From an uncultured Candidatus Saccharibacteria bacterium (GTDB taxonomy: Bacteria > Patescibacteriota > Minisyncoccia > Phycocordibacterales > DATDSR01), in assembly GCA_964348575.1 (NCBI GenBank), contig CAYGDD010000001.1:1-49511 (forward strand): DNA of 49,511 nucleotides, in the 5' to 3' direction. The position numbers and the translations under genes were made by a program. Positions 1-24,573 of the stretch are shown here, piece by piece (position 1 is the first letter of the stretch; the number at the start of each line of letters is the position of its first letter). A model generated the notes under the pieces. That model did no database searches and was not told the DNA's origin. It worked only from the letters and a program-made list of their open reading frames with translations.

Positions 1-51
1 AGCATTCGACTGATACTCGAAAGGTCCTAGGTTCGATCCCTAGAGCGCGCA
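1..51 (+). tRNA. tRNA-Ile(GAU), 3' portion (5' part lies upstream of the window)
   Basis: Anticodon stem TTCGA(5-9)/TCGAA(17-21) around loop CTGATAC, with anticodon GAT at 12-14. Variable loop AGGTC. T-stem CTAGG(27-31)/CCTAG(39-43) with loop TTCGATC. Acceptor 3' strand AGCGCGC(44-50), discriminator A51. CCA is not encoded. Confidence 0.7.
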
Positions 52-9301: not shown

Positions 9302-10146
9302 GATGGTTATTTTACTTCACGATGAGTATATTAGTAGTCGGGGGAGCACTACAGATATATGCCGAGACATCAGTAGTTACTGTGACGGTGATAATCCCCG
9401 AATGTAATGACACTCTTGATAATGACGGCGATACCTTTGTAGACTACCCTTCTGACCCCGGATGTACTAGTCTCTTTGATAACGACGAGACTGACCCAGT
9501 GGCTCCACAGTGCAATGATGGCATAGATAACGACGGCGATTCTAGAATAGATTTTCCGACTGACCTTGGTTGTGACAGCCTAACGGACAATGATGAGTCT
9601 GGCGAGGTTGTTGTCACACCGACTACCACCCCCGGCGGGGGTAACGGTCCAATCTTGCCTACGGTCACTCTAACTGGTACACAGGTGATCTTCTCGGGTA
9701 GGGCCTTCCCCGGGGCAAGTATCACCGCCTTAGCTGATGGCAAGGTGGTAGGTGTCACTAGGGTAGGTGTTGATAACTTGTTTAGATTAAGCATTGAAGA
9801 GATCCCTCCCGGAGTGTACATATTCAACATCTACGCCACAGATCCCTTAGGGCGTACTCTCCGGCCCCAGTCGTTTGCTTTAGAGCTTAGCCGAGGCTTG
9901 ATTACAGAGATTAAAGGAATCGTGTTCACGCTATCAAGTGAGATTGATAAAATAACCGGCTGTTCTAATTTGGGTGACCTTAATGCTGATTGTAAGGTTA
10001 ATCTTACTGATTTTTCCATCGCTGCTTATTGGTGGGGCAGGACCCTAGATGCTGACTTCTTGAAATTGGAAGCCAGAAGATTGAGTGGCGATGGCAAAAT
10101 TAGTCTGGAAGACTTTAGCATCCTCGCTTATTATTGGACAGGATGA
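9298..10146 (+). CDS. dockerin-containing secreted protein with two Cys/Asp-rich Ca-binding-type repeats and an Ig-like middle domain
   Basis: Two copies of CND(T/G)xDNDGDxxxD(Y/F)PxDxGCxSLxDNDE. The C-terminus carries duplicated dockerin-type segments, DLNADCKVNLTDFSIAAYWW and SGDGKISLEDFSILAYYW. ATGA overlap with the upstream gene. Confidence 0.75.
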   Translation: MRWLFYFTMSILVVGGALQIYAETSVVTVTVIIPECNDTLDNDGDTFVDYPSDPGCTSLFDNDETDPVAPQCNDGIDNDGDSRIDFPTDLGCDSLTDNDESGEVVVTPTTTPGGGNGPILPTVTLTGTQVIFSGRAFPGASITALADGKVVGVTRVGVDNLFRLSIEEIPPGVYIFNIYATDPLGRTLRPQSFALELSRGLITEIKGIVFTLSSEIDKITGCSNLGDLNADCKVNLTDFSIAAYWWGRTLDADFLKLEARRLSGDGKISLEDFSILAYYWTG

Positions 10147-11102
10147 TTATGGGAACTCAAAGCACAAAACTCAAAGCACAAAACTCAAAGTCGGTTAGAT
10201 TGATTTCGTATTGTTTTTTTATCTTCGCTTTTACCATACTCTGCATACAATTTACGAGTAATACAGCCTATGGGGCTTGGCTTGGTTTCGGCCTAGAGTC
10301 AGTTGAGGTGACGGTTAATAAGGACTTCTCTGTGGACTTATTGCTTGATCCAGAGGGTGGAGATATTAACGCTCTTGAGCTAGAGCTTAGTTATGACCCG
10401 ACTAAATTATATTTCAAATCTGGGCCAACAGGTAAGTCTGTGGTAAGTATCTGGCTTACTCCTCCGGTGGCCACAGAAGGGCTTATAACTATGGCGGGCA
10501 TTATGCCCGGAGGCTTTAGTGGGTTAATAGACATAGCTACAGGCAAGAAGAGGGCGGGCAATATTGCTTCATTCGTCTTTAGGCCACTGGTAGTGGGCAC
10601 GTCTACAATTGAATTTGAGACCACCAAAGTCATCAAGAATGATGGTCTTGGCACAGAGCTTAAGTTACCTGCTTATAATTTAGTTGTCAGGGCTAACCAA
10701 AGTGCAGTAGGCTCGGTAGATATTTACGAATATAATGACACAGAACCCCCGGATGTATTTGAACCAACCTTGATAAAGTCAAAATATATCTATGATAATA
10801 AATATACGCTCATCTTTAATGCTAGCGATGGCGGTTCGGGCGTAGAGAGATACGAAGTGAGTGAGGGTGAGGATAAGTTTAAGAACGCTAAGAGCCCGTA
10901 CCTTTTGGAAGATCAGGCTTTAGAGGGTATAATATTAGTTAGGGCGATTGACTTCGCCGGTAACGCCCGGACTGTTGCGCTTGAGCCTTATTCCGCAAGC
11001 AATAGTGGTAAGTGGACAGGCTCGCAGGTACTTATAGTAATCGCATTTGTCATATTGTTAATTGTATGGATGATAAGAAGAAAATTCCAAACTCACATCT
11101 AG
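10143..11102 (+). CDS. cohesin-domain protein with C-terminal TM anchor (start uncertain: TTG 10134, ATG 10143 or ATG 10149)
   Basis: Cohesin-like region FSVDLLLDPEGGDINALELELSYDPTKLYF...ASFVFRPLVVGTSTIEF. An Ig-like domain follows (GGSGVERYEVS). C-terminal TM VLIVIAFVILLIVWMI. Confidence 0.7.
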   Translation: MIMGTQSTKLKAQNSKSVRLISYCFFIFAFTILCIQFTSNTAYGAWLGFGLESVEVTVNKDFSVDLLLDPEGGDINALELELSYDPTKLYFKSGPTGKSVVSIWLTPPVATEGLITMAGIMPGGFSGLIDIATGKKRAGNIASFVFRPLVVGTSTIEFETTKVIKNDGLGTELKLPAYNLVVRANQSAVGSVDIYEYNDTEPPDVFEPTLIKSKYIYDNKYTLIFNASDGGSGVERYEVSEGEDKFKNAKSPYLLEDQALEGIILVRAIDFAGNARTVALEPYSASNSGKWTGSQVLIVIAFVILLIVWMIRRKFQTHI

Positions 11103-13114
11103 CCCACTTTGCGTATCTCGGTGCGGTGTTGCTTGTGGCCTCATTTTTATTCTATCCGACACTTAGTGCCCAAAGCGAGACAGGAACCTCACTATATCTT
11201 ACGCCCAGCACCGGTAACTATGCGGTGGACGATACTTTCTCTGTATCTGTATATATTAATACTGGGGGATTGTCTGTTAATGCCATAGAGTCAGCCATCA
11301 CTTTTCCACCTGATAAGTTGCAAATAGTTTCGCCCTCTATTGGCAAGTCTGTTATCGGGGTGTGGGTTGGCCAACCTAGCTTCTCTAATTCGGCGGGCAC
11401 AATCAACTTCCGAGGGGCTATCCCCAACCCGGGTCTTATTACCTCACAGGGGCTTATCTCTACCTTTACCTTTAGGGTTAAGTCTGTGGGTAAGGCTGTT
11501 GTTAAGTTCACCGACAGCTCCAAAGTTTTGCTTAATGATGGCAAGGCCACCAATGTATTAAGTAATACCAGTGGGGCCATCTATGATCTTGTCTTACCCC
11601 CTCCTCAAGGACCTATTGTCGTATCTTCTACTAACCCCGACCAATCCAAGTGGTATCCCAACAGTTCAGTCTCTTTTTCCTGGTCAGGTGATAGCGAACT
11701 AGACAAGTTTAGCTATGTTTTAAACAGTGAGCCTGTCAGTAACCCAGATAATATCCAAGAGTCGGGCTCCACTGGTATCACTTATGCCGACCTTGAGGAC
11801 GGCATACACTATTTCCATATCAAGGCTTACAGAGATGGCGTATGGGGTGGTGTGACCCATTTTGCAGTCAAGGTAGACCAAACTCAGCCGGCAGATTTTA
11901 GGCTAATTATTGAGCCCCGTAAGACCACCGCCAATAGAAAGCCTATCATAATCTTTGACACCATGGACGGCGCCTCTGGAGTAGACTATTTTGAGCTTAA
12001 GATGATTTCCCTTAGCGTAGGAGCTGTTAATTTGGGCCAAGTTTCTAATGAGTTTTTTATTGAGAGTACTAGCCCCTATATCCCAGAGCTTGAGATTGGC
12101 AAGTATGATTTAGTGCTCAGAGCATTCGATAAAGCTGGGAATTACAGAGAGGTTAAAGAACGGATAACTATCCTCCCGCCGGCTTTGGGGGCTATCGGTT
12201 TCTTGTGGCCCTCTACGTGGCTTGGCTTCCTGCTTTTATTGCTCCTCCTCCTTATTAGTGCCCACTTGTCTAGGAAGTATTATCTTTGGCATCTTAGACT
12301 ATCCCACCAGCATGCTATGGGCCCAACGGCTCAGGGTGACATCGCAGAGAAGCTAGCGACGCTTAAAGAATATCAGAAGAAGTACGGCCATCTAGTTGTT
12401 GTCCTAACCTTGCTAGCCACATTGTTTGGCAATGCTGGCATGGCTCGAGCGGACATTGATGACCCTAACCGGCCGGCCCCCCCAAGTGTCACTCTTATAT
12501 CTGAAAATATTAGCAATGAAGAACTCTTCTACATTGGTGGTAGACACAACGTCCCAGGGAGTATCGTGACCATTTACCTCCAAGGGGATAGTGGCGAGAC
12601 AAGTAGCTTCCTGACAAGTACTAATCAGAAAGGGGACTGGTTCTACTCTATGACCCGATTCTTGCCGGCTGGGGAGTATAGTGTCTGGACCCAGGCGCGT
12701 TCGGGTAATGTAGAGAGTCCCCCTTCTGCCCAAACCAAGTTTAATGTAGAGAAGACCGCCTTCTCTGTAGGGGGTTCTAGGATCAGCTATCAACTTATCT
12801 TTGGCCTTGTCTCTATTATCTCGTTTATTCTAAGCTTAATCTTACTATTACGCGCGTACTATTATTACAAAGCAGGCAAGAAGAAGCACGCTCTCCTAAC
12901 CAAAGAGATAGAAGAGGCCACAGCCTCTGTGCATAGAGGCTTCGCCATTATTAGACGCGATATCCAAGCAGAACTTGAACTGGTGAAGAAGGCTAAACTT
13001 TCGGGTAGCTTACGGGCAGAGGAAGAGAAGCGCGAAGCGCAACTGCTTAGCGACCTTAGTAGTATAGAGGACTCTATAGGAAGGGAAGTGTGGGATATTA
13101 AGCAGTACAGCTAA
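11066..13114 (+). CDS. cohesin-domain polytopic membrane protein (about 680 aa)
   Basis: ATG 11066 (MDDKKK) precedes a signal-like segment. Cohesin-like region FSVSVYINTGGLSVNAIESAITFPPDKLQIVS...STFTFRVKSVGKAVVKF. Further Ig-like domains and three hydrophobic segments follow (WLGFLLLLLLLLISAHL, LVVVLTLLATLFG, LIFGLVSIISFILSLILLL). The tail is charged and coiled-coil-like. Confidence 0.7.
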   Translation: MDDKKKIPNSHLAHFAYLGAVLLVASFLFYPTLSAQSETGTSLYLTPSTGNYAVDDTFSVSVYINTGGLSVNAIESAITFPPDKLQIVSPSIGKSVIGVWVGQPSFSNSAGTINFRGAIPNPGLITSQGLISTFTFRVKSVGKAVVKFTDSSKVLLNDGKATNVLSNTSGAIYDLVLPPPQGPIVVSSTNPDQSKWYPNSSVSFSWSGDSELDKFSYVLNSEPVSNPDNIQESGSTGITYADLEDGIHYFHIKAYRDGVWGGVTHFAVKVDQTQPADFRLIIEPRKTTANRKPIIIFDTMDGASGVDYFELKMISLSVGAVNLGQVSNEFFIESTSPYIPELEIGKYDLVLRAFDKAGNYREVKERITILPPALGAIGFLWPSTWLGFLLLLLLLLISAHLSRKYYLWHLRLSHQHAMGPTAQGDIAEKLATLKEYQKKYGHLVVVLTLLATLFGNAGMARADIDDPNRPAPPSVTLISENISNEELFYIGGRHNVPGSIVTIYLQGDSGETSSFLTSTNQKGDWFYSMTRFLPAGEYSVWTQARSGNVESPPSAQTKFNVEKTAFSVGGSRISYQLIFGLVSIISFILSLILLLRAYYYYKAGKKKHALLTKEIEEATASVHRGFAIIRRDIQAELELVKKAKLSGSLRAEEEKREAQLLSDLSSIEDSIGREVWDIKQYS

Positions 13115-13143: not shown

Positions 13144-13998
13144 TTATTTACCAGTTATTAGACACACGATAGCTCCCCCCGCTCCAGCTTGCCAGCCCTC
13201 TCTCTGTGCCTTAACTAGACCAGCAATAGAGAGAGCGCTATTGGCTGATATGTCTATCCCAGTAAGGTCCTTAACTAACTTTACGGCTTCTATAATCTCA
13301 GGGTCGCTTACTACCCAACCACCTACCAGACTCTTCTGTAGGCTATCTTTGCGTAGAGCTACCTTATCCACTATCGCATCAGCTATGGAAGTCTCGCTAC
13401 TTTCAAACTTAGTATCTAAACTTTCGGCAATGGGATGACAAGCACTGGTCTGTACTATGTGCACAGGATACTTCGAAGCTAGGGCTAGAGCGGTAGTGCC
13501 ACTTGATGTGGGTACAAATATGGCCGAAACTTTATTAATTTCAGAGAGTTCGTCAACAAGACTTTGGTAGCCGATTAAGGCCAAGGGGTCGTTGGATTGG
13601 CGCAAGGCTTTAGCCTCTCCCTTTTTATTTAACATATGGACTGATTGTACAGGGCGGTCTGTTTGGATAAGTGTGAAGCCAGGATCAGTTATCTTTTCTT
13701 TCAGTATGTTCAGCTTATCTTGGTCAATGTTTTGACCTACGAATATATCTAGCATGAGCGGGTCCTCGGTAAACTTTGTGTTGTATTCATTTATGTAAGA
13801 GAGTGCGGCAAGGGCGGCGTTGCCCGAGCTGGAGATAGCAAAACGCTTTTGACCACCTCCCGCATATTGCCGAATCATATAGGGGATGGAGCGCCCCTTG
13901 TGTGAGCCAAAAGGATGCAAGTCCTCACGTTTAAGGTACAAACTAGGCACACCAAGCCTTTTGGCTAGTTGGGGGACTTCCTGTTGCGGGGTAATCAT
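13144..13998 (-). CDS. fold-type II PLP-dependent enzyme (threonine synthase / cysteine synthase-like, 284 aa)
   Basis: LKREDLHPFGSHKGRS corresponds to the xKxExxNPxGSFKDR PLP-lysine motif. A glycine-rich SSGNAA loop is present. Confidence 0.65.
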   Translation of the reverse strand: MITPQQEVPQLAKRLGVPSLYLKREDLHPFGSHKGRSIPYMIRQYAGGGQKRFAISSSGNAALAALSYINEYNTKFTEDPLMLDIFVGQNIDQDKLNILKEKITDPGFTLIQTDRPVQSVHMLNKKGEAKALRQSNDPLALIGYQSLVDELSEINKVSAIFVPTSSGTTALALASKYPVHIVQTSACHPIAESLDTKFESSETSIADAIVDKVALRKDSLQKSLVGGWVVSDPEIIEAVKLVKDLTGIDISANSALSIAGLVKAQREGWQAGAGGAIVCLITGK

Positions 13999-14050
13999 AA
14001 CTCGTAGTATACTCTATATAAGTTGTTAGTTGCTAGGTATCAGGTTTTGG

Positions 14051-14086
14051 CCTAACACCTAACACCTAATACTAATACCTAATCAC
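14051..14086. repeat. five degenerate tandem heptamers CCTAAYA just upstream of the LysW-like ORF
   Basis: cctaaca cctaaca cctaata ctaata cctaatca, ending 2 nt before ATG 14089. Confidence 0.8.
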
Positions 14087-14088
14087 TT

Positions 14089-14259
14089 ATGACTAAATCA
14101 CTAATTTGTCCGGAATGTAAAAATGACATAGACCTTGTGGCCTCTGGCGAACTTATGGTTGGCAAGATCATAGAGTGTGACTCATGCGGTATTACTCTAG
14201 AGGTCACAGACATTACTACTCCAACAATTACGGTTGAGATTGTAGACGAAGGCAAGTAG
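14089..14259 (+). CDS. LysW-like zinc-ribbon small protein (56 aa; below the ORF-track length cut-off)
   Basis: Hand translation gives MTKSLICPECKNDIDLVASGELMVGKIIECDSCGITLEVTDITTPTITVEIVDEGK. The CPEC...(19 aa)...CDSC ribbon with GxIIEC and LEV matches the LysW/amino-group-carrier pattern. The acidic tail ends in DEGK rather than EDWGE. Confidence 0.55.
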   Translation: MTKSLICPECKNDIDLVASGELMVGKIIECDSCGITLEVTDITTPTITVEIVDEGK

Positions 14260-15634
14260 CCTCTATCATTCCGCGGAAGCCATGGCTACCTAAGAAGACA
14301 ATTACCATAGGAGCCTCTGTTGCTAACTGCTCAACTAATTTATCATCGTCTGGGATGTAGCGCACGTCAAGATGTGCTCGTGATATTAGCTTGGCTAGGT
14401 CGGCTCCATCCATGGGTTTGGCAGTTCTGTCGGGGTCAATCTTCTGCTTACTTAGACGGGGGATAATGACACTGTCAGCAGCCGAGAAGGCCCCAGTATA
14501 ACGTGAGGCCATCTCGGCGTTGCGACCGCCGAGATTGGGTTCGAACACAGCCACAATCTTGCCACTATATATCTCACGCAAGTTCCTAAGTGTAGCTCTG
14601 GCCTTGTCGGGTGAGTGGGCTAGGTCGTTAATCACAGTTGTGCTCTTGGTTTGGCAGACTTTCTCTAGGCGTTGCCTAAGTCCAGCGAAGCTTCGGATAC
14701 TTGCTATTATACTTTTGGCTGGGATCCCTAGTTCAAGCGCTATGGCAAAGGCTCCGGTAATATTCTCGGCTTGGAAGTCGCCGATTAGACCACTTTCAAT
14801 GGCATAGGAATTGGTCTTATCTTTGATACCAAAGCGCAGACCAGTGCTAGATTGACCCACGCGTACATATTGATAATCGGCCGAGCTTTGACGTCCATAG
14901 GTTACTACTTTGGCCAAAGCCCCACCAAGTACACGCTTAACTCCGGTGTCGTTATCACAGGCGACAATTAGGCCGGTGGGTGGGATGGAGCTTACTAACT
15001 TCTCGAACACTGCGAAGTAGTGGTCCTCGGTGGGGTATAAGTCAGCGTGGTCCCATGATAAGCCTGTTAGTAGTAGGTGCGTAGGGTTATAGTAGACGAA
15101 CTTGGGCGTGGGGTCATCTCGCTCGCTCCGGTACTCATCTCCCTCAAAGACGCTCCACTCGCCATTGCCAATATGGGCAGGTCGCTCGCCCGATTTAGGT
15201 ATGCCCCCCATCATGTAGCTAGGGTCAAGTTTGGCTTGTGTAAATATGTGAGCAAGAAGAGCGGTAGAACTTGTCTTACCCCAAGTCCCCGCGACGACTA
15301 GCGACTTAGGTTTGATAAAATAATCTCTAAAGACTTGAGTATATGGTACAAGGGGGATGTTGTTGTCTTTTGCATACTGCCATTCGGGATTATTTTCCCC
15401 GGCGTAGCTAATGGGGATGACTATATCGGGTTTGCCCATCTTCTCGGGGTGCCAACCTGGGTAAAATTTTATACCAGCTTCTGTGAGTAAGTCCGAGGCC
15501 GGCGGATAGAAGCCCTTATCCGAGCCTGTTACCTTCCAGCCAGCATTGGCAAGGGCAAGGGCAAGGGCACTTGTGGCCTTGCCACAAATGCCAATGATGT
15601 GGGCATGCTTCTTGCTTGCTTGAGAGTTTGCCAT
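14228..15634 (-). CDS. mpl: Mur ligase family, Mpl-like (UDP-MurNAc:L-Ala-gamma-D-Glu-meso-DAP ligase type)
   Basis: N-terminus HIIGICGKATSALALALANAGWKVTGSDKGFYPPASDLLTEAGI resembles Mpl (GICG...TGSD..YPP...L...GI). Central P-loop AGTWGKTS and a Mur ligase C-terminal region are present. Confidence 0.7.
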   Translation of the reverse strand: MANSQASKKHAHIIGICGKATSALALALANAGWKVTGSDKGFYPPASDLLTEAGIKFYPGWHPEKMGKPDIVIPISYAGENNPEWQYAKDNNIPLVPYTQVFRDYFIKPKSLVVAGTWGKTSSTALLAHIFTQAKLDPSYMMGGIPKSGERPAHIGNGEWSVFEGDEYRSERDDPTPKFVYYNPTHLLLTGLSWDHADLYPTEDHYFAVFEKLVSSIPPTGLIVACDNDTGVKRVLGGALAKVVTYGRQSSADYQYVRVGQSSTGLRFGIKDKTNSYAIESGLIGDFQAENITGAFAIALELGIPAKSIIASIRSFAGLRQRLEKVCQTKSTTVINDLAHSPDKARATLRNLREIYSGKIVAVFEPNLGGRNAEMASRYTGAFSAADSVIIPRLSKQKIDPDRTAKPMDGADLAKLISRAHLDVRYIPDDDKLVEQLATEAPMVIVFLGSHGFRGMIEATCLRLQSQP

Positions 15635-15646
15635 TAGATAAGGATA

Positions 15647-16420
15647 TCACACTTGCTTAAGTGAAGTTTTCAATCTTTCTAGATCTGTTTGCCAACCAGT
15701 ATCTTTATCAAACCATTCAAGGCCACTAAACTGGAGCTTGTAAGTATCTGTGGGTCTTGTGGCCGAACCTAGGTATACATACTTATCTCCCTGCTCTTTA
15801 GCAAGCATAATAGCCATAAGCATCATGCCGAGACCCATACTCTTAGGCACACTAGTTATTGCATCTTTGCTTTGGGTACTTTCGGAGTCGGAGCTGTCAT
15901 TGTGTAAACTATAGAATGGATAAGAGTAATGCAGTAAGCCTTCCCCCGCATAGCAAATAGTATACCCCAACCCCAACTTAGCCGACGGTCCGCTAAGTAG
16001 TGGGTTTGAGAAGCTTATCAATGCATTGAAGTTACTTTTATCTGGGTCAGTTAGTAGCTCTTTTACTTTGTTAGCACTAAAGATGAGTTTACCCCGCGAA
16101 GCCTCGGGCGAAGTGGGGCCAAATTTGGTGCTATAGAAGTCTTTAGCCAGTTTAGCTATCTGCCAAGAGTAGTCCTCCATGGGCAGGCTCTCAACATTTA
16201 GCTCTATGCCCTCTAGTTGCTTAAGTATACGTCTGTTCTCACTAGATAGCTCAAATTTACTTAGGTCCACCCTCACACTCCGAGTCTGTTGCATAACACC
16301 CTTACCCTTACGGGTAAAGACGTAACCTTGATTATACAAATCGCGAACAGCCTCATCCGAAAAATCCGTAATAGTTTTCTCCTCCCAATTTAAATAGTTG
16401 TTTTCTCCTCCCTTTAACAT
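15647..16420 (-). CDS. ATE/Bpt-like (arginyl/leucyl-tRNA-protein transferase C-terminal fold) protein, 257 aa
   Basis: GYVFTRKGKG...RSVRVDLSKFELSSENRRILKQ parallels the Bpt/ATE pattern GFRRSG...IR...F.LS.SQKR.L. The C-terminal part HYSYPFYS...MGLGMMLMAIMLAKEQGDKYVYLG...YKLQFSGLEWF parallels SAxYxFFxP...SLGT...YLGY...YKxxF. Confidence 0.55.
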   Translation of the reverse strand: MLKGGENNYLNWEEKTITDFSDEAVRDLYNQGYVFTRKGKGVMQQTRSVRVDLSKFELSSENRRILKQLEGIELNVESLPMEDYSWQIAKLAKDFYSTKFGPTSPEASRGKLIFSANKVKELLTDPDKSNFNALISFSNPLLSGPSAKLGLGYTICYAGEGLLHYSYPFYSLHNDSSDSESTQSKDAITSVPKSMGLGMMLMAIMLAKEQGDKYVYLGSATRPTDTYKLQFSGLEWFDKDTGWQTDLERLKTSLKQV

Positions 16421-16443
16421 TTAACATTTAACATTTAACATTT
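16413..16443. repeat. (TTTAACA)x4 tandem heptamer filling the whole mraY / ATE-like intergenic gap
   Basis: Four perfect units at 16413-16440 plus a partial unit. On the minus strand this reads (AAATGTT)n, and the last unit supplies the ATG at 16420. Confidence 0.9.
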
Positions 16444-17598
16444 CTAATGGAGGCCGAGCCAGAGGCCAAAGATTACCGCGGCTAGGTGGATAAGCCAGAA
16501 GCGCATTACAATCTTCTCTTCGCTCCAGCCGATGAGTTCAAAGTGGTGGTGCAGAGGGGCCATCCGGAAGATGCGCCTACCAAGAAATGTGCGTCCAAAA
16601 ACTTGGATAATTACAGTCAGGGTCTCAACTACAAAAATGAAAGCAAGTAGCGGGAGCACAACTATAGCATTGGTAACAACCGCATTAATACCCATAAGGG
16701 CCCCGAGGCCTAGACTACCCACATCACCCATTTGGAAGCGGGCAGGTTTGACATTGAAATATGTGTAAGTAATAAGCGCGCCCATGGTTACGGCATCTAA
16801 GATGGCCACTTCGCGTAGGCCACTTGCCCAAGCCAAGATACCTAGAGCACCAAAAGTGGGTATGAGGGCTCCGCCCGAGAGGCCGTCTAGACCGTCAGAA
16901 ATGTTAACAGAGTTGGCGGCAGCGATGACTACAAAGATGACCAAGGGTACTATCCAGAAGCCGATGTTGATGTCTCCGCCAAAGGCGGACCCGCCTCCAG
17001 CGGAAAAGGGAAGAGCAATCTCACGCCAGTTCTCGCCTAGCTTCCAATAGATCCACCACGCACTAATGCCTCCAGCTATAAATTGGAGGAGCAACTTCTC
17101 ATGTACCTGCACGCCCTTACCGGGGTGTGAGCCTAGCCACATACTCATACGTTTGAAGGCCACCCAAGGCAGACTAAGGAAGAGCCAGATGCGCATAAGA
17201 GGGTTCTTGTGTACTTGGGCCAAGCGCAGGACGTGTGCGAGCTTGGGGTTACGTCGCTTACTGCCAAAGATGTTAAGCAGGTCGTCTAAACCACCCAAGA
17301 AGGCGGAGATGAGCATCACACCTATGGGGACGAAGGTGAAGGCTCGTGACCAGTTAAACAAGATAGTGATGACAGCTACCGTAACGACCACCAATAAGCC
17401 ACCCATAATGGGAGTACCCACTTTGTCTTTACGCGAATCAAGCGCAAGTGTAGTGTCATATGGGTTGCGTCTAGTGATGTCCCACTTGTAAAGATAGTGC
17501 GTAAGAATTGGAGCCCAAAGGAAAGCAATAAAACAAGAAAAGATGATATAGCCGAGGAAAGTGGTAAGTAGTCCCATGTCTTGCATAGAGCCTAACAT
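16444..17598 (-). CDS. mraY: phospho-N-acetylmuramoyl-pentapeptide transferase
   Basis: Polytopic membrane protein with the MraY motifs NSVNISDGLDGLSGG, MGDVGSLGLG and APLHHHFE. ATG 17598 is preferred over TTG 17604 because a GGGGGAGGG box lies 10 nt upstream of it. Confidence 0.9.
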   Translation of the reverse strand: MLGSMQDMGLLTTFLGYIIFSCFIAFLWAPILTHYLYKWDITRRNPYDTTLALDSRKDKVGTPIMGGLLVVVTVAVITILFNWSRAFTFVPIGVMLISAFLGGLDDLLNIFGSKRRNPKLAHVLRLAQVHKNPLMRIWLFLSLPWVAFKRMSMWLGSHPGKGVQVHEKLLLQFIAGGISAWWIYWKLGENWREIALPFSAGGGSAFGGDINIGFWIVPLVIFVVIAAANSVNISDGLDGLSGGALIPTFGALGILAWASGLREVAILDAVTMGALITYTYFNVKPARFQMGDVGSLGLGALMGINAVVTNAIVVLPLLAFIFVVETLTVIIQVFGRTFLGRRIFRMAPLHHHFELIGWSEEKIVMRFWLIHLAAVIFGLWLGLH

Positions 17599-17639
17599 TA
17601 GCAAAAATCCCTCCCCCTTTCAATCATATAAATGTCGAA

Positions 17640-17681
17640 CCCCCGAGACCGTACTGCGCAGGGGCAGATTAGTCTCGGGGG
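17640..17681 (-). terminator. hairpin 7 nt downstream of the cassette-1 gene stop (no clear T-tract)
   Basis: CCCCCGAGAC (17640-17649) pairs with GTCTCGGGGG (17672-17681). The loop contains the palindrome CTGCGCAG. Confidence 0.4.
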
Positions 17682-17688
17682 CGTGTGG

Positions 17689-18177
17689 CTACTCGGTGGG
17701 AGCGTCCTCTGCGGGAGTGTTCTCATCATCTTCCCAAGGATTGGCTTGGGGTATGGCGAACGTCGGCTTAACTTCGCCATTGACGATCATCCAAAGGAAT
17801 TGTACTGCTTCCTGGATGGATCGTGCAGAAAGGCTGATATCCTGCGTCCATGTTTGCCGGCCGTTCCCAGTGGAACTTTGACCACATAGCCGGGTCTCTA
17901 TCTTTGCAAATTTTTCGTTATGGGTAGGTGCCAGGTAATAGCCTGGTGACATCTTTCCCATATCAAGGTGGTACCACAGGCTAACACCTGCCACCCACTT
18001 GTCAGGTAGGCCGGGTGTTTCTTGGGTAGACCTCGGGGCAATCGGATCGAAATGATTATAGTCGAGGTAGAAATCGCCTCGCTCGCACTGTTTCGGCTTC
18101 CTTCCCTCCAGCGCCTCTTTGAGGTACGGGTCGGTCTCAGGGTTGCCTGCGAGGTAGAGCCTTGTCGTCCCGATCAT
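17689..18177 (-). CDS. hypothetical protein (162 aa) in GC-richer cassette 1
   Basis: AGGAGG (18182-18187) lies 4 nt before ATG 18177. The gene has its own promoter and a downstream hairpin. I recognise no family. Confidence 0.6.
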   Translation of the reverse strand: MIGTTRLYLAGNPETDPYLKEALEGRKPKQCERGDFYLDYNHFDPIAPRSTQETPGLPDKWVAGVSLWYHLDMGKMSPGYYLAPTHNEKFAKIETRLCGQSSTGNGRQTWTQDISLSARSIQEAVQFLWMIVNGEVKPTFAIPQANPWEDDENTPAEDAPTE

Positions 18178-18243
18178 GTTGCCTCCTGTGTCTCAGGTCA
18201 TGTAGGGGATTAGTCCCCAGTCAGCCCAAAACGTCCACTACAG

Positions 18244-18272
18244 AGCATATCACATGAATAAACACTTGTCAA
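18244..18272 (-). promoter_or_regulatory. near-consensus sigma70 promoter of cassette 1
   Basis: On the minus strand, TTGACA (18272-18267), a 17-nt spacer, then TATGCT (18249-18244). It lies immediately after the stop of the upstream NlpC/P60 gene. Confidence 0.55.
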
Positions 18273-18276
18273 ATAT

Positions 18277-18960
18277 TTAGAACCAGTTTAGGCGTCGTAG
18301 TTCTCCGGGGGGGTTACTTGAGTCTATTTGCTCTATGCGTACGCCATGCCCATAACGGCCATCCTCTGGTAGGGCCACTGATTGGGCTATCTCTATTTCG
18401 CCATTTTCAATTTTGATTATTACCATTATGTGATTACGTGGGGTGCCGGTTTGCTTGGCATATTTGTTAATAACAAAAAAGTCTCCCGCCCTAGCCTCAT
18501 TGATCTTGATTTGCCTACTGTTACTTGCGTCAGCAAAGACAGCTACACTCATGTTCTCTACTGGGCGCTTAACAAATAATTTTCTAATAATAGAAAGTAC
18601 GTTATTGGCCTTAGGGAAAGATAGCTTATCTACCAAGTGACCATACCCACGGCCTACGCCTTCGGCCTCAAGGATGTAATATACGAAACCAGAACAGTCT
18701 ATGCCCAAGTTGTGGTCTACCAAGAACTTAGTCTTATTTTCTGGCGAGAGTTTAGCTAGTTCGACTTTACTTTTGTGAGCAATTAGCAGGGCCTCCTCCA
18801 CAATCTCCTCTGCACTCCCTTTGCCCACTTGTACTCGCAGAGCCCCACGCACCTTCTGGCGCTCGTTGGTAAAGTATGGGCACTTAACACCCAGATCTGG
18901 TAAGCGAAGGAATTCTGCAAGCACTAAGTTGGCCTCATGGCTTAGTTTGGAATTGATCAT
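18277..18960 (-). CDS. NlpC/P60 (C40) family peptidase-like protein
   Basis: Catalytic-Cys motif GIDCSGFVYYIL, then ARAGDFFVI...NHIMVIIK (His motif) in canonical order. ATGA overlap with the upstream ATP-grasp gene. Confidence 0.7.
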   Translation of the reverse strand: MINSKLSHEANLVLAEFLRLPDLGVKCPYFTNERQKVRGALRVQVGKGSAEEIVEEALLIAHKSKVELAKLSPENKTKFLVDHNLGIDCSGFVYYILEAEGVGRGYGHLVDKLSFPKANNVLSIIRKLFVKRPVENMSVAVFADASNSRQIKINEARAGDFFVINKYAKQTGTPRNHIMVIIKIENGEIEIAQSVALPEDGRYGHGVRIEQIDSSNPPGELRRLNWF

Positions 18961-20099
18961 GACACAAGCTTTGCTACTTCTTCGCCTAATGGTGAAAGTT
19001 TATTATGCCCAGCCATCAAGCTTACACTATTAGACCTTATCTGGAGTAAGTCCTCGCCCGGCTTCTCGGGCACAGACTCAACAGTACTAAGCCCCAGTAC
19101 TTGTAACTTGCCCACGGCATCTTCTGCGATGGCCACACTTGACTGTCTGCGTATAAGTCGCGCTCCAGCTGTGATCATAGCAGGACTACTTTCAAAAGGT
19201 ATGTTCGCCAAGGATGCGATATGAGATTCAAAGGTTGTGGGCAGTTCTGGCACGAGCGACTTCTGTAGCATGGATTCGAAGGTTACAGATGCAGTCTGCC
19301 GTGCGTTGACCTCTATTAGGTACAGTTCGTCAGTATTCTTGTCGAGTATCAGGTCTACTCCATAGCAACCTCTCCAACCATCTCGCTGCATACGCTCGCC
19401 AATTTTGGTAGAAATTTCTCGGGCCTTTCTTTGTTGCTCGGCTGTTAGTAATTTATTCACAATACCCCAATCGTTGCCAATGGTAGCAAAGGGATTATCC
19501 GTAAAGGCAGGGAGGCCAGTAATTTGGTAGCTAAGACTGCCTAGGATTACACGCGTACCTGTCACCACGTTGTTGCTGGTAAAGACTGGTCCATCTATAA
19601 ACTTACTTATACGCACAGGTCTATCGGGGAAGTCGGTGGCAAGTTCGCGCACTTGCGCTTCGCTATCTTGAAGTATAGTGCCAAGACCAGAGTGCGAATG
19701 GTTAAATTGGACAATCACTGGCGTACCATCATATACAAGCTCGCTACATCGGCGGATGGCAAAGGGTACGAGTAAGTTGGCCAGTTCGCCCAACCACTTG
19801 GTCTGACTGATCTTGGCTTCTACGCGCTCGGCCAAGTCCGCACTGGGGTTAAGTAAGTTCCAATTGTTAAGCTTGCATACCTGCTCGGCCTGGCGATTAG
19901 TCTTAAATATCACTAGGTTCTTCTCGGGTTTATTTGCAAATAGCTCAGCCACACGCGGGTCTGTCAATAATTCACGAGTGCTCCTGCTCTCATCACTAAA
20001 GATCTCGTAGCCCGCCGTGCTTAGGCTATCGGCACGTTCGGCTTGGCGGGTAATATATAAGACTGGATGCTCTTTAAGATATGTGTATAATTCTTCCAT
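18957..20099 (-). CDS. ATP-grasp family ligase (380 aa), substrate unknown
   Basis: C-terminal ATP-grasp signature GWRGCYGVDLILDKNTDELYLIEVNARQTAS. Confidence 0.7.
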   Translation of the reverse strand: MEELYTYLKEHPVLYITRQAERADSLSTAGYEIFSDESRSTRELLTDPRVAELFANKPEKNLVIFKTNRQAEQVCKLNNWNLLNPSADLAERVEAKISQTKWLGELANLLVPFAIRRCSELVYDGTPVIVQFNHSHSGLGTILQDSEAQVRELATDFPDRPVRISKFIDGPVFTSNNVVTGTRVILGSLSYQITGLPAFTDNPFATIGNDWGIVNKLLTAEQQRKAREISTKIGERMQRDGWRGCYGVDLILDKNTDELYLIEVNARQTASVTFESMLQKSLVPELPTTFESHIASLANIPFESSPAMITAGARLIRRQSSVAIAEDAVGKLQVLGLSTVESVPEKPGEDLLQIRSNSVSLMAGHNKLSPLGEEVAKLVS

Positions 20100-20183: not shown

Positions 20184-20876
20184 ATGGGCATACTTTACAT
20201 TGTCGGGACACCTATTGGCAACTTGGAAGATATTACTATGCGAGCCTTGCGCATTTTACGCGAGGTAGATGTAATATTTTGCGAAGACACCAGAGTTACG
20301 GCTAGGCTACTTAAGCGCTACAATATAACTAAGCCTCTAAAACAATTTAACGCTCACACCCGCGTCTCTGGCTTCCAAAATCTAGCTTCTAGCCTCCAGA
20401 GTATTGCTTATGTAAGTGACGCCGGTACTCCCGGCTTATCGGACCCTGGAGCAGAGCTGGTGCGCGCCAGCTTGGCTCTTGGCTTTGAGGTGGTGAGCGT
20501 GCCGGGGCCTTCGGCTATCTCGGCCATCATCTCACTTTCGGACACCACCATCACCAGCTTTACCTTCCACGGCTTCCCGCCCCACAAGAAGGGGAGAGAA
20601 ACTCTCTTCAAACAGATTGCCCTCTCACTTAGCGGACCGTCGGCTAAGTCAGATAGATCTATGGGTCTGGCGGAGATTTTTTACGAATCGCCTAATCGCA
20701 TTGTTAAAGCTCTTACTCAATTAGAGAAGTATGCCCCAGATAGGCGAGTGTTGGTAGGTCGTGAGCTGACCAAAAAGTTTGAGGAAGTTTTGCGAGGCAC
20801 AGTCACCGAAGTTCGCACCCTCCTTGAATCTGACCCCAGCAAACAAAGAGGCGAGTTCGTCGTCCTAGTTCTTTAA
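20184..20876 (+). CDS. rsmI: 16S rRNA (cytidine1402-2'-O)-methyltransferase
   Basis: LYIVGTPIGNLEDITMRALRILREVDVIFCEDTR, SDAGTPGLSDPG and FYESPNR are typical RsmI / tetrapyrrole-methylase-fold motifs. Confidence 0.9.
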   Translation: MGILYIVGTPIGNLEDITMRALRILREVDVIFCEDTRVTARLLKRYNITKPLKQFNAHTRVSGFQNLASSLQSIAYVSDAGTPGLSDPGAELVRASLALGFEVVSVPGPSAISAIISLSDTTITSFTFHGFPPHKKGRETLFKQIALSLSGPSAKSDRSMGLAEIFYESPNRIVKALTQLEKYAPDRRVLVGRELTKKFEEVLRGTVTEVRTLLESDPSKQRGEFVVLVL

Positions 20877-21381: not shown

Positions 21382-21636
21382 ATGAAGAGATGGTGGTACA
21401 TATTGTTCGGCTCAGCTGTTGTAGTGATACTACCTTTGCTTGGCTTGCCTGCTAGCGTGGATAGGGTAGCTTATATGTTTATTGGCATATCTTTTATTCT
21501 AATTTCTTTGCACAATATTCGCCGAGGTTACTTGCGTGATTTCGTAGCTTTCAATACTACTACACCCTCTCCGGCGGAGACACCCGAACTTTATCAAGAG
21601 CCAACAACTCCCGCTGATGAAGAGGTATCAATTTGA
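21382..21636 (+). CDS. small membrane protein (84 aa)
   Basis: MKRWWYILFGSAVVVILPLLGL is followed by a second hydrophobic helix. ATG 21382 lies 7 nt downstream of TGgTATGAT (21366-21374). The ORF-track ATG at 21370 lies inside that -10 box. Confidence 0.55.
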   Translation: MKRWWYILFGSAVVVILPLLGLPASVDRVAYMFIGISFILISLHNIRRGYLRDFVAFNTTTPSPAETPELYQEPTTPADEEVSI

Positions 21637-22798
21637 GATCGCAGGAGTATTGCTTATCATAGTTGCAACTTTGGTTGTTGGTACATATTTAGTTTTCGGC
21701 TTTGCTAATCAGGCGAGCTTGGTCTATGTAGCTAGGCAAGAAGAACCTAGTCTGGTTGCCCAAGTGCCTCCTAAACCCAAAGTTTTGCACATTAAGACAC
21801 CCACCCCTGTGCGCGGGTTGTATCTTACTTCTTGGGTGGCAGGATATAAGAATGCTGAAGGTGATTACTCTTGGCGTAAGAAGATTGTCGCCATTGCGAC
21901 CACTACTGAAATTAATACCCTAGTGATAGATATTAAGGATTACACCGGACGCATATCCTTTGAACTGCCCGGGACTATATACAGTGAGATGGGGGCAGAT
22001 AGTAAGCGTATACCTGATGTAAAAGAATTTATACAAGAGCTACACGATGAGAATATTTACGTCGTCGGTAGATTGTCGGTCTTTCAAGACCAGTTTCTCA
22101 CCGCCGAGCGACCAGAGCTGGCAGTACTCCGCAAAGATAATGGGGAAGTATGGCGCGATCGCATGGGGATAGCTTGGCTTGACCCGGGCAACAGGCAAGT
22201 TTGGGATTATGTGGTGGGCATAGCACAGGCTTCTTACGCACTTGGCTTTGACGAGATTAACTTTGATTATATCCGTTTTCCCTCTGACGGCAATATGCAG
22301 AACACTTTATATCCGCACAGTGACCCCACTCTTGCCAAGCGCGATCAGCTTAATCTGTTCTTCGCTTATCTTGATGGCAAGTTACGGACAGAAGGTATTC
22401 CAATCTCGGCTGACATCTTCGGCATGACTACAACCAATACCGATGACTTGGGCATAGGCCAAGTCCTTGAGAACGCCCTTGCCCACTTTGATTACGTTGC
22501 TCCTATGGTCTACCCCTCGCATTATCCGCCCAACTTTAACGGCTGGCCCGATCCTAATAAAGTGCCCTACGAGCTAATCCATTTTGTAATGAGTAGTGCT
22601 GTAGAGCGCGCTATTATGGCAAGCTCTACTCCAAGCAAGCTCCGGCCTTGGTTGCAAGACTTTAACTACGGGGGTATCTATGGCGAGACCGAGGTTAGAG
22701 CCCAGAAGCAGGCTGTCTATGACGTGGGTCTTGATAGCTGGATGCTTTGGGACCCCAGTGTTAAGTACACCATAAGTGCTCTTGATTTAGTGATATAA
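21617..22798 (+). CDS. membrane-anchored putative glycoside hydrolase (COG1306 / GH-like TIM barrel)
   Basis: N-terminal TM, then VRGLYLTSW...LVIDIKDYTGRISF...GFDEINFDYIRFPSDG, typical of this family. Confidence 0.6.
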   Translation: MKRYQFEIAGVLLIIVATLVVGTYLVFGFANQASLVYVARQEEPSLVAQVPPKPKVLHIKTPTPVRGLYLTSWVAGYKNAEGDYSWRKKIVAIATTTEINTLVIDIKDYTGRISFELPGTIYSEMGADSKRIPDVKEFIQELHDENIYVVGRLSVFQDQFLTAERPELAVLRKDNGEVWRDRMGIAWLDPGNRQVWDYVVGIAQASYALGFDEINFDYIRFPSDGNMQNTLYPHSDPTLAKRDQLNLFFAYLDGKLRTEGIPISADIFGMTTTNTDDLGIGQVLENALAHFDYVAPMVYPSHYPPNFNGWPDPNKVPYELIHFVMSSAVERAIMASSTPSKLRPWLQDFNYGGIYGETEVRAQKQAVYDVGLDSWMLWDPSVKYTISALDLVI

Positions 22799-22806
22799 TA
22801 TTACAG

Positions 22807-24573
22807 ATGGATAAGGACACTAGCGAGAGAGTTATATATTTCGCTGAGACAGACTTCCGCAATCGGAAACAGCGTTTTGGTATTAAAGAGAAGGATCGTT
22901 CTCGCCATATGTACGTCATTGGTAAGACGGGTATGGGTAAGTCTACCTTGCTTGAGAATCTAGCCATCCAAGATATCCAGAACGGTTCGGGTCTAGGCTT
23001 CATTGACCCTCACGGTGGTTCGGCCGAGCTCTTACTTGACCACGTGCCTAAGTCGCGTATTAAGGATGTAATTTATTTTGCCCCATTTGATCTTGAGAAT
23101 CCAGTCTCATTTAACGTTATGGAGGACGTGGGCAAGGACCAGCGCCACCTGGTGGCTGATGGGCTTATGGCTGCCTTTAAGAAGATCTGGCCTGATGTGT
23201 GGAGTGCGCGCATGGAGTACATTCTCAACAACATCCTTCTCGCCCTCATTGAGTATCCAGATTCTACCTTGCTTGGTGTTAATCGGATGCTGGCCGACAA
23301 GTCTTATCGAGATATGGTGGTGGCCCACATTACCGACCCTGCCGTGCGTGCCTTCTGGCTGGACGAGTTTGCCAAGTATACTGACAAGTATATGCAAGAG
23401 GCTGGGGCTGCCATCCAGAACAAGATTGGCCAATTTGTATCTTCACCCATTATCAGGAATATAATTGGTCAAACTACCTCCTCTTTCAACATTCGTGAGG
23501 CTATGGATAGTAAGAAGATTCTGATTATGAATCTTTCTAAAGGTAGGATGGGCGAGAACAATGCCGCCCTGTTGGGTGGTATGCTAATTACTAAGATGTA
23601 CTTGGCTGCTATGTCCAGAGCCCAAGTCAGGGCAAGTGAACTTGCTGGACTACCCCACTTCTACTTTTACGTGGACGAGTTCCAGTCCTTTGTTAACGAA
23701 TCGTTTGCCAATATTCTCTCGGAGGCGCGCAAATACAAACTAGACTTAACCATCGCGCATCAATATGTGGAACAAATGCCCGAGGAAGTACGTGACGCCG
23801 TCTTTGGCAACGTGGGGACTACTATTGCCTTCCGAGTTGGACCACTTGATGCCGAACTCTTAGAGAAAGTTTTTGCCCCCAACTTCTTAGTAGAGGATCT
23901 TGTTAACCTCGGACGTAACCAGATATATCTTTCGCTTATGATAGACGGTATCGGTTCGCCTCCCTTCTCGGCCAAGACCATACCCCCAATAGTACTCGAC
24001 GGCGAGTCACGCCGGGAAGAAGCCTTGGCCTTCTCGCGCGCAACCTATGCCAAGCCCCGAGCTCAAGTAGAGAAGTTGATTGAGGACTGGCATCAGGCTA
24101 TGCCAGTTGCAAGTGGGAGCAGTGATCGTGGTAGAAGTAGTAGTCCTAGTAGTCGGCCCCAATTTGCTGGCAGTAACCAACAGCAGAGACCTAGGCCTAC
24201 CTACCAAACGCAATCTGCAACACGGGCCACACCTCCCGGACCTGCTAATAGTCAAAATCAGCAAAGTAATCCTGCACAAAGGCCGGTGATTAATAATGTC
24301 CGCCATAATACCAACAATCCACCACCCCGCCAGATGGCCATACCCAAAGAGGCCCAAGAGGCACTGGGGGCAAGTAATCTTAAAGATCTGTTAGCTAACG
24401 CCCTCAAAGAGGCTCATTACGAACCAAATAATGAAGATGAAGATGAAGATGATGGCGATGTAACAAGAGTTTACAAGCATGAAGAAGCTTCAGAAGTAGT
24501 TAACCAAACAGAGCAACCAACTGACCCAGCGATCTCAACCGAAGAGTTAAAGAAAATCTTAGGCAAAAAATAG
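22807..24573 (+). CDS. soluble VirD4/TraG/TraD-like (type IV coupling protein-type) P-loop ATPase with Q/N/P-rich and acidic C-terminal tail
   Basis: Walker A GKTGMGKST, Walker B FYFYVDEFQSF, LTIAHQY. No N-terminal TM. The tail from about 24100 is low-complexity (QQQRPRPTYQTQ...NNEDEDEDDGD). Confidence 0.6.
   Translation: MDKDTSERVIYFAETDFRNRKQRFGIKEKDRSRHMYVIGKTGMGKSTLLENLAIQDIQNGSGLGFIDPHGGSAELLLDHVPKSRIKDVIYFAPFDLENPVSFNVMEDVGKDQRHLVADGLMAAFKKIWPDVWSARMEYILNNILLALIEYPDSTLLGVNRMLADKSYRDMVVAHITDPAVRAFWLDEFAKYTDKYMQEAGAAIQNKIGQFVSSPIIRNIIGQTTSSFNIREAMDSKKILIMNLSKGRMGENNAALLGGMLITKMYLAAMSRAQVRASELAGLPHFYFYVDEFQSFVNESFANILSEARKYKLDLTIAHQYVEQMPEEVRDAVFGNVGTTIAFRVGPLDAELLEKVFAPNFLVEDLVNLGRNQIYLSLMIDGIGSPPFSAKTIPPIVLDGESRREEALAFSRATYAKPRAQVEKLIEDWHQAMPVASGSSDRGRSSSPSSRPQFAGSNQQQRPRPTYQTQSATRATPPGPANSQNQQSNPAQRPVINNVRHNTNNPPPRQMAIPKEAQEALGASNLKDLLANALKEAHYEPNNEDEDEDDGDVTRVYKHEEASEVVNQTEQPTDPAISTEELKKILGKK

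Follow-up and report, generated by a model that had tools for sequence, protein, structure and literature searches.

To our knowledge, aminoacyl-tRNA transferases acylate amines only, and tRNA-dependent branching of peptidoglycan is known for the Fem family only. In Ate1 of K. lactis, residues Tyr303-Lys304 are essential, the lysine corresponding to Lys305 of FemX and to the lysines of aaPGS enzymes; the N-domain of the same protein carries a C4 zinc finger (Cys23, Cys26, Cys95 and Cys96), and its basic, tRNA-binding alpha-3 helix is common to all aminoacyl-tRNA transferases (PMC9351520). Here we analyze a stretch of DNA of 49,511 nucleotides (nt) from an uncultured Candidatus Saccharibacteria bacterium (contig CAYGDD010000001.1 of assembly GCA_964348575.1; the whole stretch is referred to as the window), in which a gene encoding an ATE/Bpt-like protein of 257 amino acids (aa) lies between mraY and a Mur ligase gene. 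The presence of this gene in a wall operon probably reflects a tRNA-dependent modification of the wall precursor by a non-Fem branch of the fold superfamily, a route that is undescribed.

The 257-aa protein has no Pfam match of its own, and it matches seven NCBIfam Bpt "arginyltransferase" models, the best with an expect value (E) of 7e-6 and 25.4 bits versus cutoffs of 170-358. Residues 193-245 align with positions 190-243 of a model of 256, and residues 34-78 with positions 50-94 of a model of 241; as both alignments are in order, the match is colinear over the two halves of the protein. Bpt models were also matched by all 33 aligned members of the family (best E 5e-14, about 50 bits versus the same cutoffs), Pfam ATE_C (PF04377) by 24 of the 33 and Acetyltransf_6 by 11, with no member matching either ATE_N or, at E<=1, FemAB (PF02388). 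The family comprises at least 1807 clusters at 90% identity, and 500 proteins at 50% clustering with E<=1e-3. The few source names given are of Patescibacteria type (Patescibacteria group, Paceibacterota, Pacebacteria), and the Joint Genome Institute (JGI) labels members as arginyl- or leucyl-tRNA-protein transferases.

An AlphaFold model built from the alignment reached a predicted local distance difference test (pLDDT) score of 87.5 and a predicted template-modelling (TM) score of 0.87, low confidence being confined to two insertions specific to the window protein. A Foldseek search of this model against solved structures returned human ATE1 as the top match (E 4.7e-8, TM 0.61). Aminoacyl-tRNA-dependent transferases account for 48 of the other 49 matches listed (aaPGS/MprF, yeast and K. 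lactis ATE1, Sba18, L/F-transferase and FemX), the single exception being the Legionella acetyltransferase VipF at rank 48; aaPGS/MprF domains were the second-best fold match (E 1.9e-6), and FemX was found at E 1e-4 and TM 0.39. Sequence searches of solved structures, with the single sequence, with a 33-sequence profile and with a 31-sequence profile of two subfamilies, detected generic GNAT motif-A matches and no ATE1, FemX or L/F-transferase.

The alignments cover the subfamily of the window protein and a sister subfamily from Microgenomates, and across the two (about 30% identity) the invariant residues are Y227-K228, within the motif D-x-YKLQF-x-G-x-EWF, together with R47, R50, S60-E61-N62-x-R64, G196 and Y216-L217-G218. 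The basic SSENRR stretch that includes S60-R64 forms a helix in the AlphaFold model. No cysteine appears among the invariant or near-invariant columns of alignments of 33 and 31 sequences, so that the family lacks the C4 zinc finger known from the N-domain of ATE. From profiles, model and conserved residues, we read the protein as a predicted active aminoacyl-tRNA transferase of a separate, cysteine-less branch of ATE/Bpt. An ATE/Bpt-like fold had already been proposed in a first-pass annotation made from the letters of the window alone, and the matches to Bpt models, ATE_C and human ATE1 bear it out; canonical membership of Bpt was considered and rejected, given the scores far under the cutoffs and the missing zinc finger.

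Fused forms of the ATE-like protein also exist: P0385 (809 aa) has a long C-terminal extension resembling a PEP-utilising enzyme by sequence, P0382 (373 aa) is extended at the C-terminus by some 110 uncharacterised residues, and P0047 (379 aa) has an additional GNAT acetyltransferase domain.

Two other activities have to be weighed against these data. Since Bpt and ATE1 are the closest families by both profile and fold, and JGI names members accordingly, the protein could aminoacylate protein N-termini as Bpt does, within an N-degron pathway or for the regulation of a wall-synthesis enzyme encoded nearby. We regard this as distinctly unlikely, because scores of 25-50 bits compare with equivalog cutoffs of 170-358, the zinc finger and any invariant cysteine are lacking, and the invariant operon partners described below are wall-synthesis genes, not protease or adaptor genes. 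On the other hand, the rank of the aaPGS and MprF domains among the fold matches and the tight coupling of the gene to that of a membrane enzyme would agree with aminoacylation of membrane lipids or with a non-catalytic partner of MraY. Such a role seems extremely improbable: the modelled fold is compact and globular, whereas in MprF a membrane domain is joined to that of aaPGS, the Tyr-Lys pair and the basic helix are strictly conserved, as would be expected of a catalyst, and the Microgenomates copy is coupled to murE and not to mraY.

The features of the locus, given as coordinates of the window, are:

18957-20099, minus strand: putative ATP-grasp carboxylate-amine ligase, 380 aa

18277-18960, minus strand: putative NlpC/P60-like cysteine hydrolase, 227 aa

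17689-18177, minus strand: orphan open reading frame (ORF), 162 aa

16444-17604, minus strand: MraY (phospho-MurNAc-pentapeptide translocase), 386 aa

15647-16420, minus strand: ATE/Bpt-like protein with an aminoacyl-tRNA-transferase fold, 257 aa

14228-15634, minus strand: Mur ligase of MurC type, 468 aa, with all three Mur ligase domains

14089-14259, plus strand: small protein with a LysW-type zinc ribbon (PF21344), 56 aa

13144-13998, minus strand: fold-type II pyridoxal phosphate (PLP) enzyme, 284 aa (PF00291, E 1.6e-31)

20184-20876, plus strand: RsmI 16S rRNA methyltransferase (TIGR00096, 188.3 bits, above the cutoff of 167.9)

On the minus strand (13144-20099), the order of transcription is ATP-grasp, P60-like, orphan ORF, MraY, ATE/Bpt-like, Mur ligase and PLP enzyme. 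The gaps that flank the ATE/Bpt-like gene measure 23 nt towards mraY (16421-16443) and 12 nt towards the ligase gene (15635-15646), so the ORF coordinates agree with the gene order and the gaps of the first-pass annotation. The start of the P60-like gene and the stop of the ATP-grasp gene overlap by 4 nt. MraY was assigned by PF00953 (83.5 bits) and TIGR00445 (185.8 bits versus a cutoff of 192). The GC content is even over the cluster region, and domain profiling of the window proteins detected no further mur gene elsewhere in the window. Neither a riboswitch nor a T-box was found by the Rfam scan of the region, ARAGORN detected no tRNA, and promoter and terminator scans gave no excess over the shuffled expectation.

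The gap between mraY and the ATE-like gene has a sequence peculiarity: on the minus strand, 16416-16443 consists of four tandem AAATGTT heptamers, the last of which provides the ATG start codon. An in-frame mini-ORF of 6 codons (ATG at 16441, TAA ending at 16421) lies directly 5' of the ATE-like start.

To analyze the conservation of this arrangement, genomes representative of species were scanned for relatives of the ATE-like protein, which are encoded at 381 loci; the best 80 were kept for the analysis of neighbors, which were called by tblastn and blastp with the window proteins, each count being given over the loci with enough flanking sequence. The mraY gene lies directly upstream of the ATE-like gene on the same strand in 73/73 loci (median gap 3 nt, many overlaps), and a Mur ligase gene lies downstream of it in all 65 loci that could be scored. 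Further downstream, the PLP enzyme is encoded in 55/55 loci, and upstream genes for the P60-like and ATP-grasp proteins are found in 61 of 68 and 54 of 62 loci, respectively. The distance between the ATE-like and ligase genes varies from an overlap up to 2.4 kb, which indicates that the gene order has survived insertions. Three look-ups of exact proteins returned an identical order with a murB or murD-like gene close by. The linkage of mraY, the ATE-like gene and the ligase gene is thus far beyond chance, and the first-pass annotation, which had made conservation of this linkage the test of its proposal, is upheld by these counts and by the Microgenomates loci described below. RsmI occupies the same divergent position in 31/56 loci and is probably a functionally unrelated neighbor of the cluster.

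Many related contigs (L004, L008, L015 and others) carry the Paceibacteria-type cluster under titles such as "uncultured Gammaproteobacteria" or "Saccharibacteria", which look like automated mislabels.

A representative search followed by a direct search revealed the sister subfamily, 27-33% identical to the window protein, with Microgenomates and Shapirobacteria as source names. At all three of its Microgenomates loci (L084, L085 and L086) the ATE-like gene is embedded within a division/cell-wall (dcw) cluster, in the order mraZ-rsmH-ftsL-ftsI-murE-ATE-like-murC-type ligase-murB-murA-ddl-murF-mraY, with ddl called in L084 and L086 but not in L085. The pair formed by the ATE-like gene and murC is therefore kept in two classes despite otherwise different gene orders. 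A gene of 233 aa follows mraY in these loci, and in L085 (13533-14234) it encodes a homolog of the P60-like protein and overlaps by 4 nt, so that the pairing of MraY with the P60-like protein is also kept across both classes, in opposite order. In the Microgenomates loci the ATE-like gene is translationally coupled to murE by a 4-nt overlap. As MurE installs the only free amine of the stem peptide, the ATE-like gene follows the enzyme that provides this amine.

Taken together, the amine-only chemistry, the place of the gene in the operon and its coupling to murE or mraY suggest a branching step of the Fem kind, with UDP-MurNAc-peptide or lipid I/II as its substrate. We place roughly even confidence in this proposal, a Fem-like, tRNA-dependent aminoacylation of an amine of the peptidoglycan precursor. 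In Patescibacteria, a divergent, zinc-finger-less branch of ATE/Bpt would have been drawn into the core pathway for peptidoglycan precursors, with its gene presumably co-transcribed, and often translationally coupled, with mraY and murC. The enzyme would take an amino acid from a charged tRNA and attach it to a free amine of the precursor. As long as the wall pathway is cytoplasmic, the amine on offer is that of the side chain of the diamino acid at position 3, which would be the most plausible acceptor, either at the nucleotide-linked stage (UDP-MurNAc-peptide) or at the lipid-linked one (lipid I/II). This would yield a stem peptide with a branch, and the job that FemX and MurM do in Firmicutes would be carried out by another branch of the same fold superfamily. 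The non-Fem, tRNA-dependent modification of stem peptides suggested by the first-pass annotation is, in our opinion, the best reading of the fold and of the linkage to wall genes, and it is from these two that we infer it.

Several observations weigh against this proposal. Bpt and ATE1, which are the closest of the characterised relatives, act on protein N-termini and not on peptidoglycan. The equivalence of Y227-K228 to Tyr303-Lys304 of Ate1 is drawn from position, motif and invariance and not from a residue-level superposition, because the sequence profiles never reached ATE1 or FemX among the solved structures. The 80 close loci come from a single clade, from which the relatives with the best scores were taken (47-56% identical to the window protein), and are not fully independent of each other. 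The MurE of L084 passes the NCBIfam cutoff for the meso-diaminopimelate (DAP) type (400 versus 373 bits), and walls of DAP type are usually cross-linked directly, without bridges. Finally, one member of a third subfamily lies in Bacteroidota-like DNA without a surrounding operon for peptidoglycan synthesis. This third subfamily offers a mixed picture regarding wall-gene context, as the member at L089 (46-7768) is translationally coupled to an Orn/DAP decarboxylase gene and has as neighbors an S66 peptidase of LdcA type, an MR_MLE protein of the L-Ala-D/L-Glu epimerase type, an aminotransferase, an M14 peptidase and an S13 peptidase of PBP4 type, a neighborhood of the murein-peptide recycling type that counts in favor of the proposal, and another member adjoins an alanine racemase gene.

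The identity of the ligase bears directly on what the ATE-like enzyme might do. The window ligase scored 258.9 bits with the murC model (cutoff 335.1) and 187 bits with that of mpl (cutoff 388.7), and its best matches among solved structures are likewise MurC (1gqq, E 1e-44) ahead of Mpl (3eag, E 2.8e-25). It resembles both enzymes in having all three Mur ligase domains, it aligns over its full length with MurC structures and it sits at the MurC position of a dcw-type cluster; unlike either enzyme it falls under both curated cutoffs, which makes it a divergent member of the MurC/Mpl clade. The Microgenomates ligase is an ortholog of it (31-33% identity, E down to 1e-73) that also scores higher as MurC than as Mpl (253 versus 210 bits, the margin being 43 bits in L084), and within its cluster, which also holds murA, murB, murE, murF, ddl and mraY, it is the only ligase of MurC type. 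On these scores and alignments, the protein is best read as a divergent MurC, and Mpl, to which the first-pass annotation had likened it, was rejected, as MurC scores higher and the context is that of a de novo wall pathway.

The same annotation had suggested the scavenging of preformed murein peptides, an idea weakened by a ligase of MurC type with an ortholog in a de novo cluster; from that account the ATE-like identity and the conserved wall-gene linkage remain, and Mpl and scavenging do not. A related possibility is that the ATE-like enzyme aminoacylates a free amino acid or a murein peptide, which a MurC/Mpl-type ligase would then join to UDP-MurNAc as a preformed peptide. In its favor are the adjacency of the ATE-like and ligase genes, the one feature kept in both classes, ligase scores under the MurC and Mpl cutoffs alike with just the small margin of L084, the recycling-type genes around the third-subfamily member at L089, and the linkage of a cytoplasmic P60-like hydrolase to the cluster. 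We consider it very unlikely nonetheless, because MurC outscores Mpl in both classes and solved MurC structures are the best match, and because the Microgenomates genes murA, murB, murE, murF and ddl constitute a de novo pathway that needs a MurC, for which this ligase is the sole candidate in the cluster.

Two conserved genes at the downstream end of the cluster, for the LysW-like protein and the adjoining PLP enzyme, were absent from the first-pass account. The LysW-like ORF is convergent with murC, overlapping its 3' end by 32 nt, and divergent from the PLP enzyme gene, and a counterpart on the opposite strand between the ligase and PLP enzyme genes was found in 66/66 loci. It matches Zn_ribbon_LysW (E 1.8e-10, 40.7 bits versus a cutoff of 27), as do 28/28 homologs, its best matches in the PDB are LysW (5k2m_E and 3wwl_A), and it has four invariant cysteines. 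Two weak matches of unknown function were found in PHROGs (E 0.003-0.004). The C-terminus reads VDEGK, with the terminal E-G-K invariant in a 28-sequence alignment; the usual tail is E(I/V)VDEGK, with (I/V)VDEGK present in 61 of 65 distinct sequences and the G-K end in all 65. The PLP enzyme is very short, has weak matches to threonine synthase and serine dehydratase, keeps its lysine in a GSHKGRS motif and is always paired with the LysW-like gene (55/55 loci).

The known LysW systems include a releasing hydrolase, LysK. In them the carrier is paired with an ATP-grasp loader, the LysW/ArgW carriers have EDWGE at the C-terminus and work through its last Glu, and the LysX/ArgX partner carries GSWGR (PMC10433800). 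The protein of the window is like these carriers in its four-cysteine zinc-ribbon domain of about 54 aa, which scores over the Pfam cutoff, in a short flexible tail with an invariant end motif, and in having an ATP-grasp gene in the same cluster. It is unlike them in the sequence of the tail and in ending with Lys and not Glu, in the cluster's ATP-grasp protein, which is not of LysX/RimK type, and in the lack of the kinase, reductase and aminotransferase genes of the Lys/Arg pathway. One may speculate that it serves as a protein of carrier type, with the PLP enzyme or the ATP-grasp protein as its partner.

These features raise the alternative of a carrier-protein pathway, in which the ATE-like, ATP-grasp, P60-like and PLP enzymes would all act on the LysW-like protein: an amino acid would be loaded onto the VDEGK tail and modified while attached to it, and an unusual amino acid or peptide would then be set free for the wall. 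The presence of the ribbon in 66/66 loci with its invariant E-G-K end, its divergent pairing with the PLP enzyme gene and the overlapping genes for an ATP-grasp protein and a cysteine hydrolase in the same cluster speak for it. Against it, the tail departs from EDWGE and has Lys in place of the final Glu, neither NCBIfam nor the fold ranking places the ATP-grasp protein with LysX/RimK, and the LysW-like gene is on the opposite strand. Moreover, no LysW-like, PLP or ATP-grasp gene was found within 7 kb in the three Microgenomates loci, which keep the ATE-like-murC pair, so that the ATE-like gene needs none of these genes nearby. On balance we find this alternative unlikely. A more specific version, in which the ATE-like enzyme or the ATP-grasp protein would load the LysW-type protein, with its invariant Lys at the end in place of Glu, the PLP enzyme would modify the cargo and the P60-like enzyme would release it as a diamino acid or branched amino acid of non-canonical type, to be used in the stem peptide, is a long shot; if true, it would be a carrier chemistry not seen before, and a biosynthetically poor symbiont could make its cross-linking residue on a protein scaffold.

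Regarding the upstream genes of the cluster, the 380-aa product matches ATP-grasp_3 (E 4.7e-7) and PRK06524 (E 7.6e-25), and its AlphaFold model (pLDDT 94.4) showed generic likeness in Foldseek to PurK, PurT, PurD, biotin carboxylase and L-amino-acid ligases. In this search none of LysX, RimK, Ddl or any D-aspartate ligase stood out, NCBIfam gave no match to the LysX/RimK family, and sequence and profile searches of solved structures gave weak matches to Ddl and PurK only. The assignment to ATP-grasp carboxylate-amine ligases is thus putative and combines domain matches with the model. The first-pass annotation had put forward an Asl-type side-chain ligase as an option, and so generic a likeness speaks neither for this subfamily nor against it. 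Homologs fused to a NUDIX hydrolase domain were found (P0146, P0159, P0173, P0190, P0194 and P0214, and L001 4288-5955), fusions that may hint at a nucleotide-linked substrate of the ATP-grasp protein.

The P60-like protein matches NLPC_P60 marginally (E 1.1e-4, 22.6 bits versus a cutoff of 23), with an invariant Cys89 in the motif G(I/V)DCSG (GIDCSGF in the window) and an invariant His177, and its profile aligned among solved structures with the Cys motif of LytE alone (E 0.4). No N-terminal hydrophobic signal was detected in its sequence, and it is accordingly taken as a putative cytoplasmic NlpC/P60-like cysteine hydrolase. Close to its C-terminus the window copy is missing about 20-30 residues, a segment present in 18/18 aligned relatives, the Cys and His being kept.

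For the orphan ORF between the P60-like gene and mraY, no counterpart was found at the 83 related loci, which makes the earlier description of an inserted cassette at this point a fair one. The ORF has no match in Pfam, NCBIfam, PHROGs or, by tblastn, in phages, and a promoter-like site (TTGACA-17-TATGCT with a TG, 18272-18244) lies just upstream of it. Searches of PHROGs and of phages by tblastn also returned nothing for the ATE-like and P60-like proteins.

The rest of the window encodes surface proteins with cohesin-like domains, a VirD4-like coupling ATPase, a DUF4015 protein and many glycosyltransferases. Two large proteins with cohesin-like domains are encoded upstream of the PLP enzyme (10134-13114), and downstream of RsmI there are a putative glycosyl hydrolase with DUF4015 (E 7.7e-94) and a coupling ATPase of the VirD4/TraG type (21617-24573); this pair and the cohesin-like proteins fit an episymbiotic repertoire of surface proteins and type IV secretion. 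A large surface-glycan locus extends over 24606-46724, with a run of glycosyltransferases (GT1/GT4, GT2, GT47-like and PMT_2), methyltransferases, an asparagine synthase, a sugar epimerase/dehydratase and YdjC, and its distal part is lower in GC (about 0.38-0.43). At the very start of the window (1-51, plus strand) lies the 3' part of a tRNA gene truncated by the window start, the sole match of the Rfam scan mentioned above (RF00005, 37.2 bits).

Patescibacteria are a large and mostly uncultured share of bacterial diversity, and we know of no description of their wall chemistry. A literature search returned no paper that connects Patescibacteria to proteins of the ATE/Bpt, Fem or LysW kinds, and none on an ATE/Bpt-type enzyme in wall synthesis or on a LysW-like protein in Patescibacteria. 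If the proposed branching step is correct, the aminoacyl-tRNA transferase fold would have been recruited to wall synthesis a second time, independently, the ATE/Bpt branch would have its first non-protein acceptor, and many Patescibacteria would be predicted to have branched or otherwise modified stem peptides. The LysW-like, PLP, ATP-grasp and P60-like neighbors point to further undescribed steps of the same pathway.

Compared with the described systems, the ATE-like family is closest to Bpt and ATE1, by profile (the PRK01305 models of NCBIfam, and ATE_C in most homologs) as well as by fold. Its length is that of Bpt (215-270 aa), and it has the same order of motifs, with a basic helix in the N-terminal part, GNAT motif A and the C-terminal Tyr-Lys. 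It differs from them in scoring far under the cutoffs, in missing the four zinc-binding cysteines and in its context, which is a peptidoglycan precursor operon and not a set of N-degron genes; the predicted acceptor is accordingly different, an amine of the wall precursor and not a protein N-terminus. With FemX, FemA, FemB and MurM it shares the fold superfamily and the catalytic Lys (PMC9351520). Unlike those proteins, it has no FemAB match, it is about 80 residues shorter than FemX (the Fem architecture measures about 330-420 aa), the residue preceding the catalytic Lys is Tyr, as in the ATE type, and not Phe, as in the Fem type, and its fold likeness is weaker to FemX than to ATE1 (TM 0.39 and 0.61, respectively). 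The Fem family is nonetheless the functional analog that we propose, with an aminoacyl-tRNA as donor and, as the operon context would suggest, an amine of the peptidoglycan precursor as acceptor.

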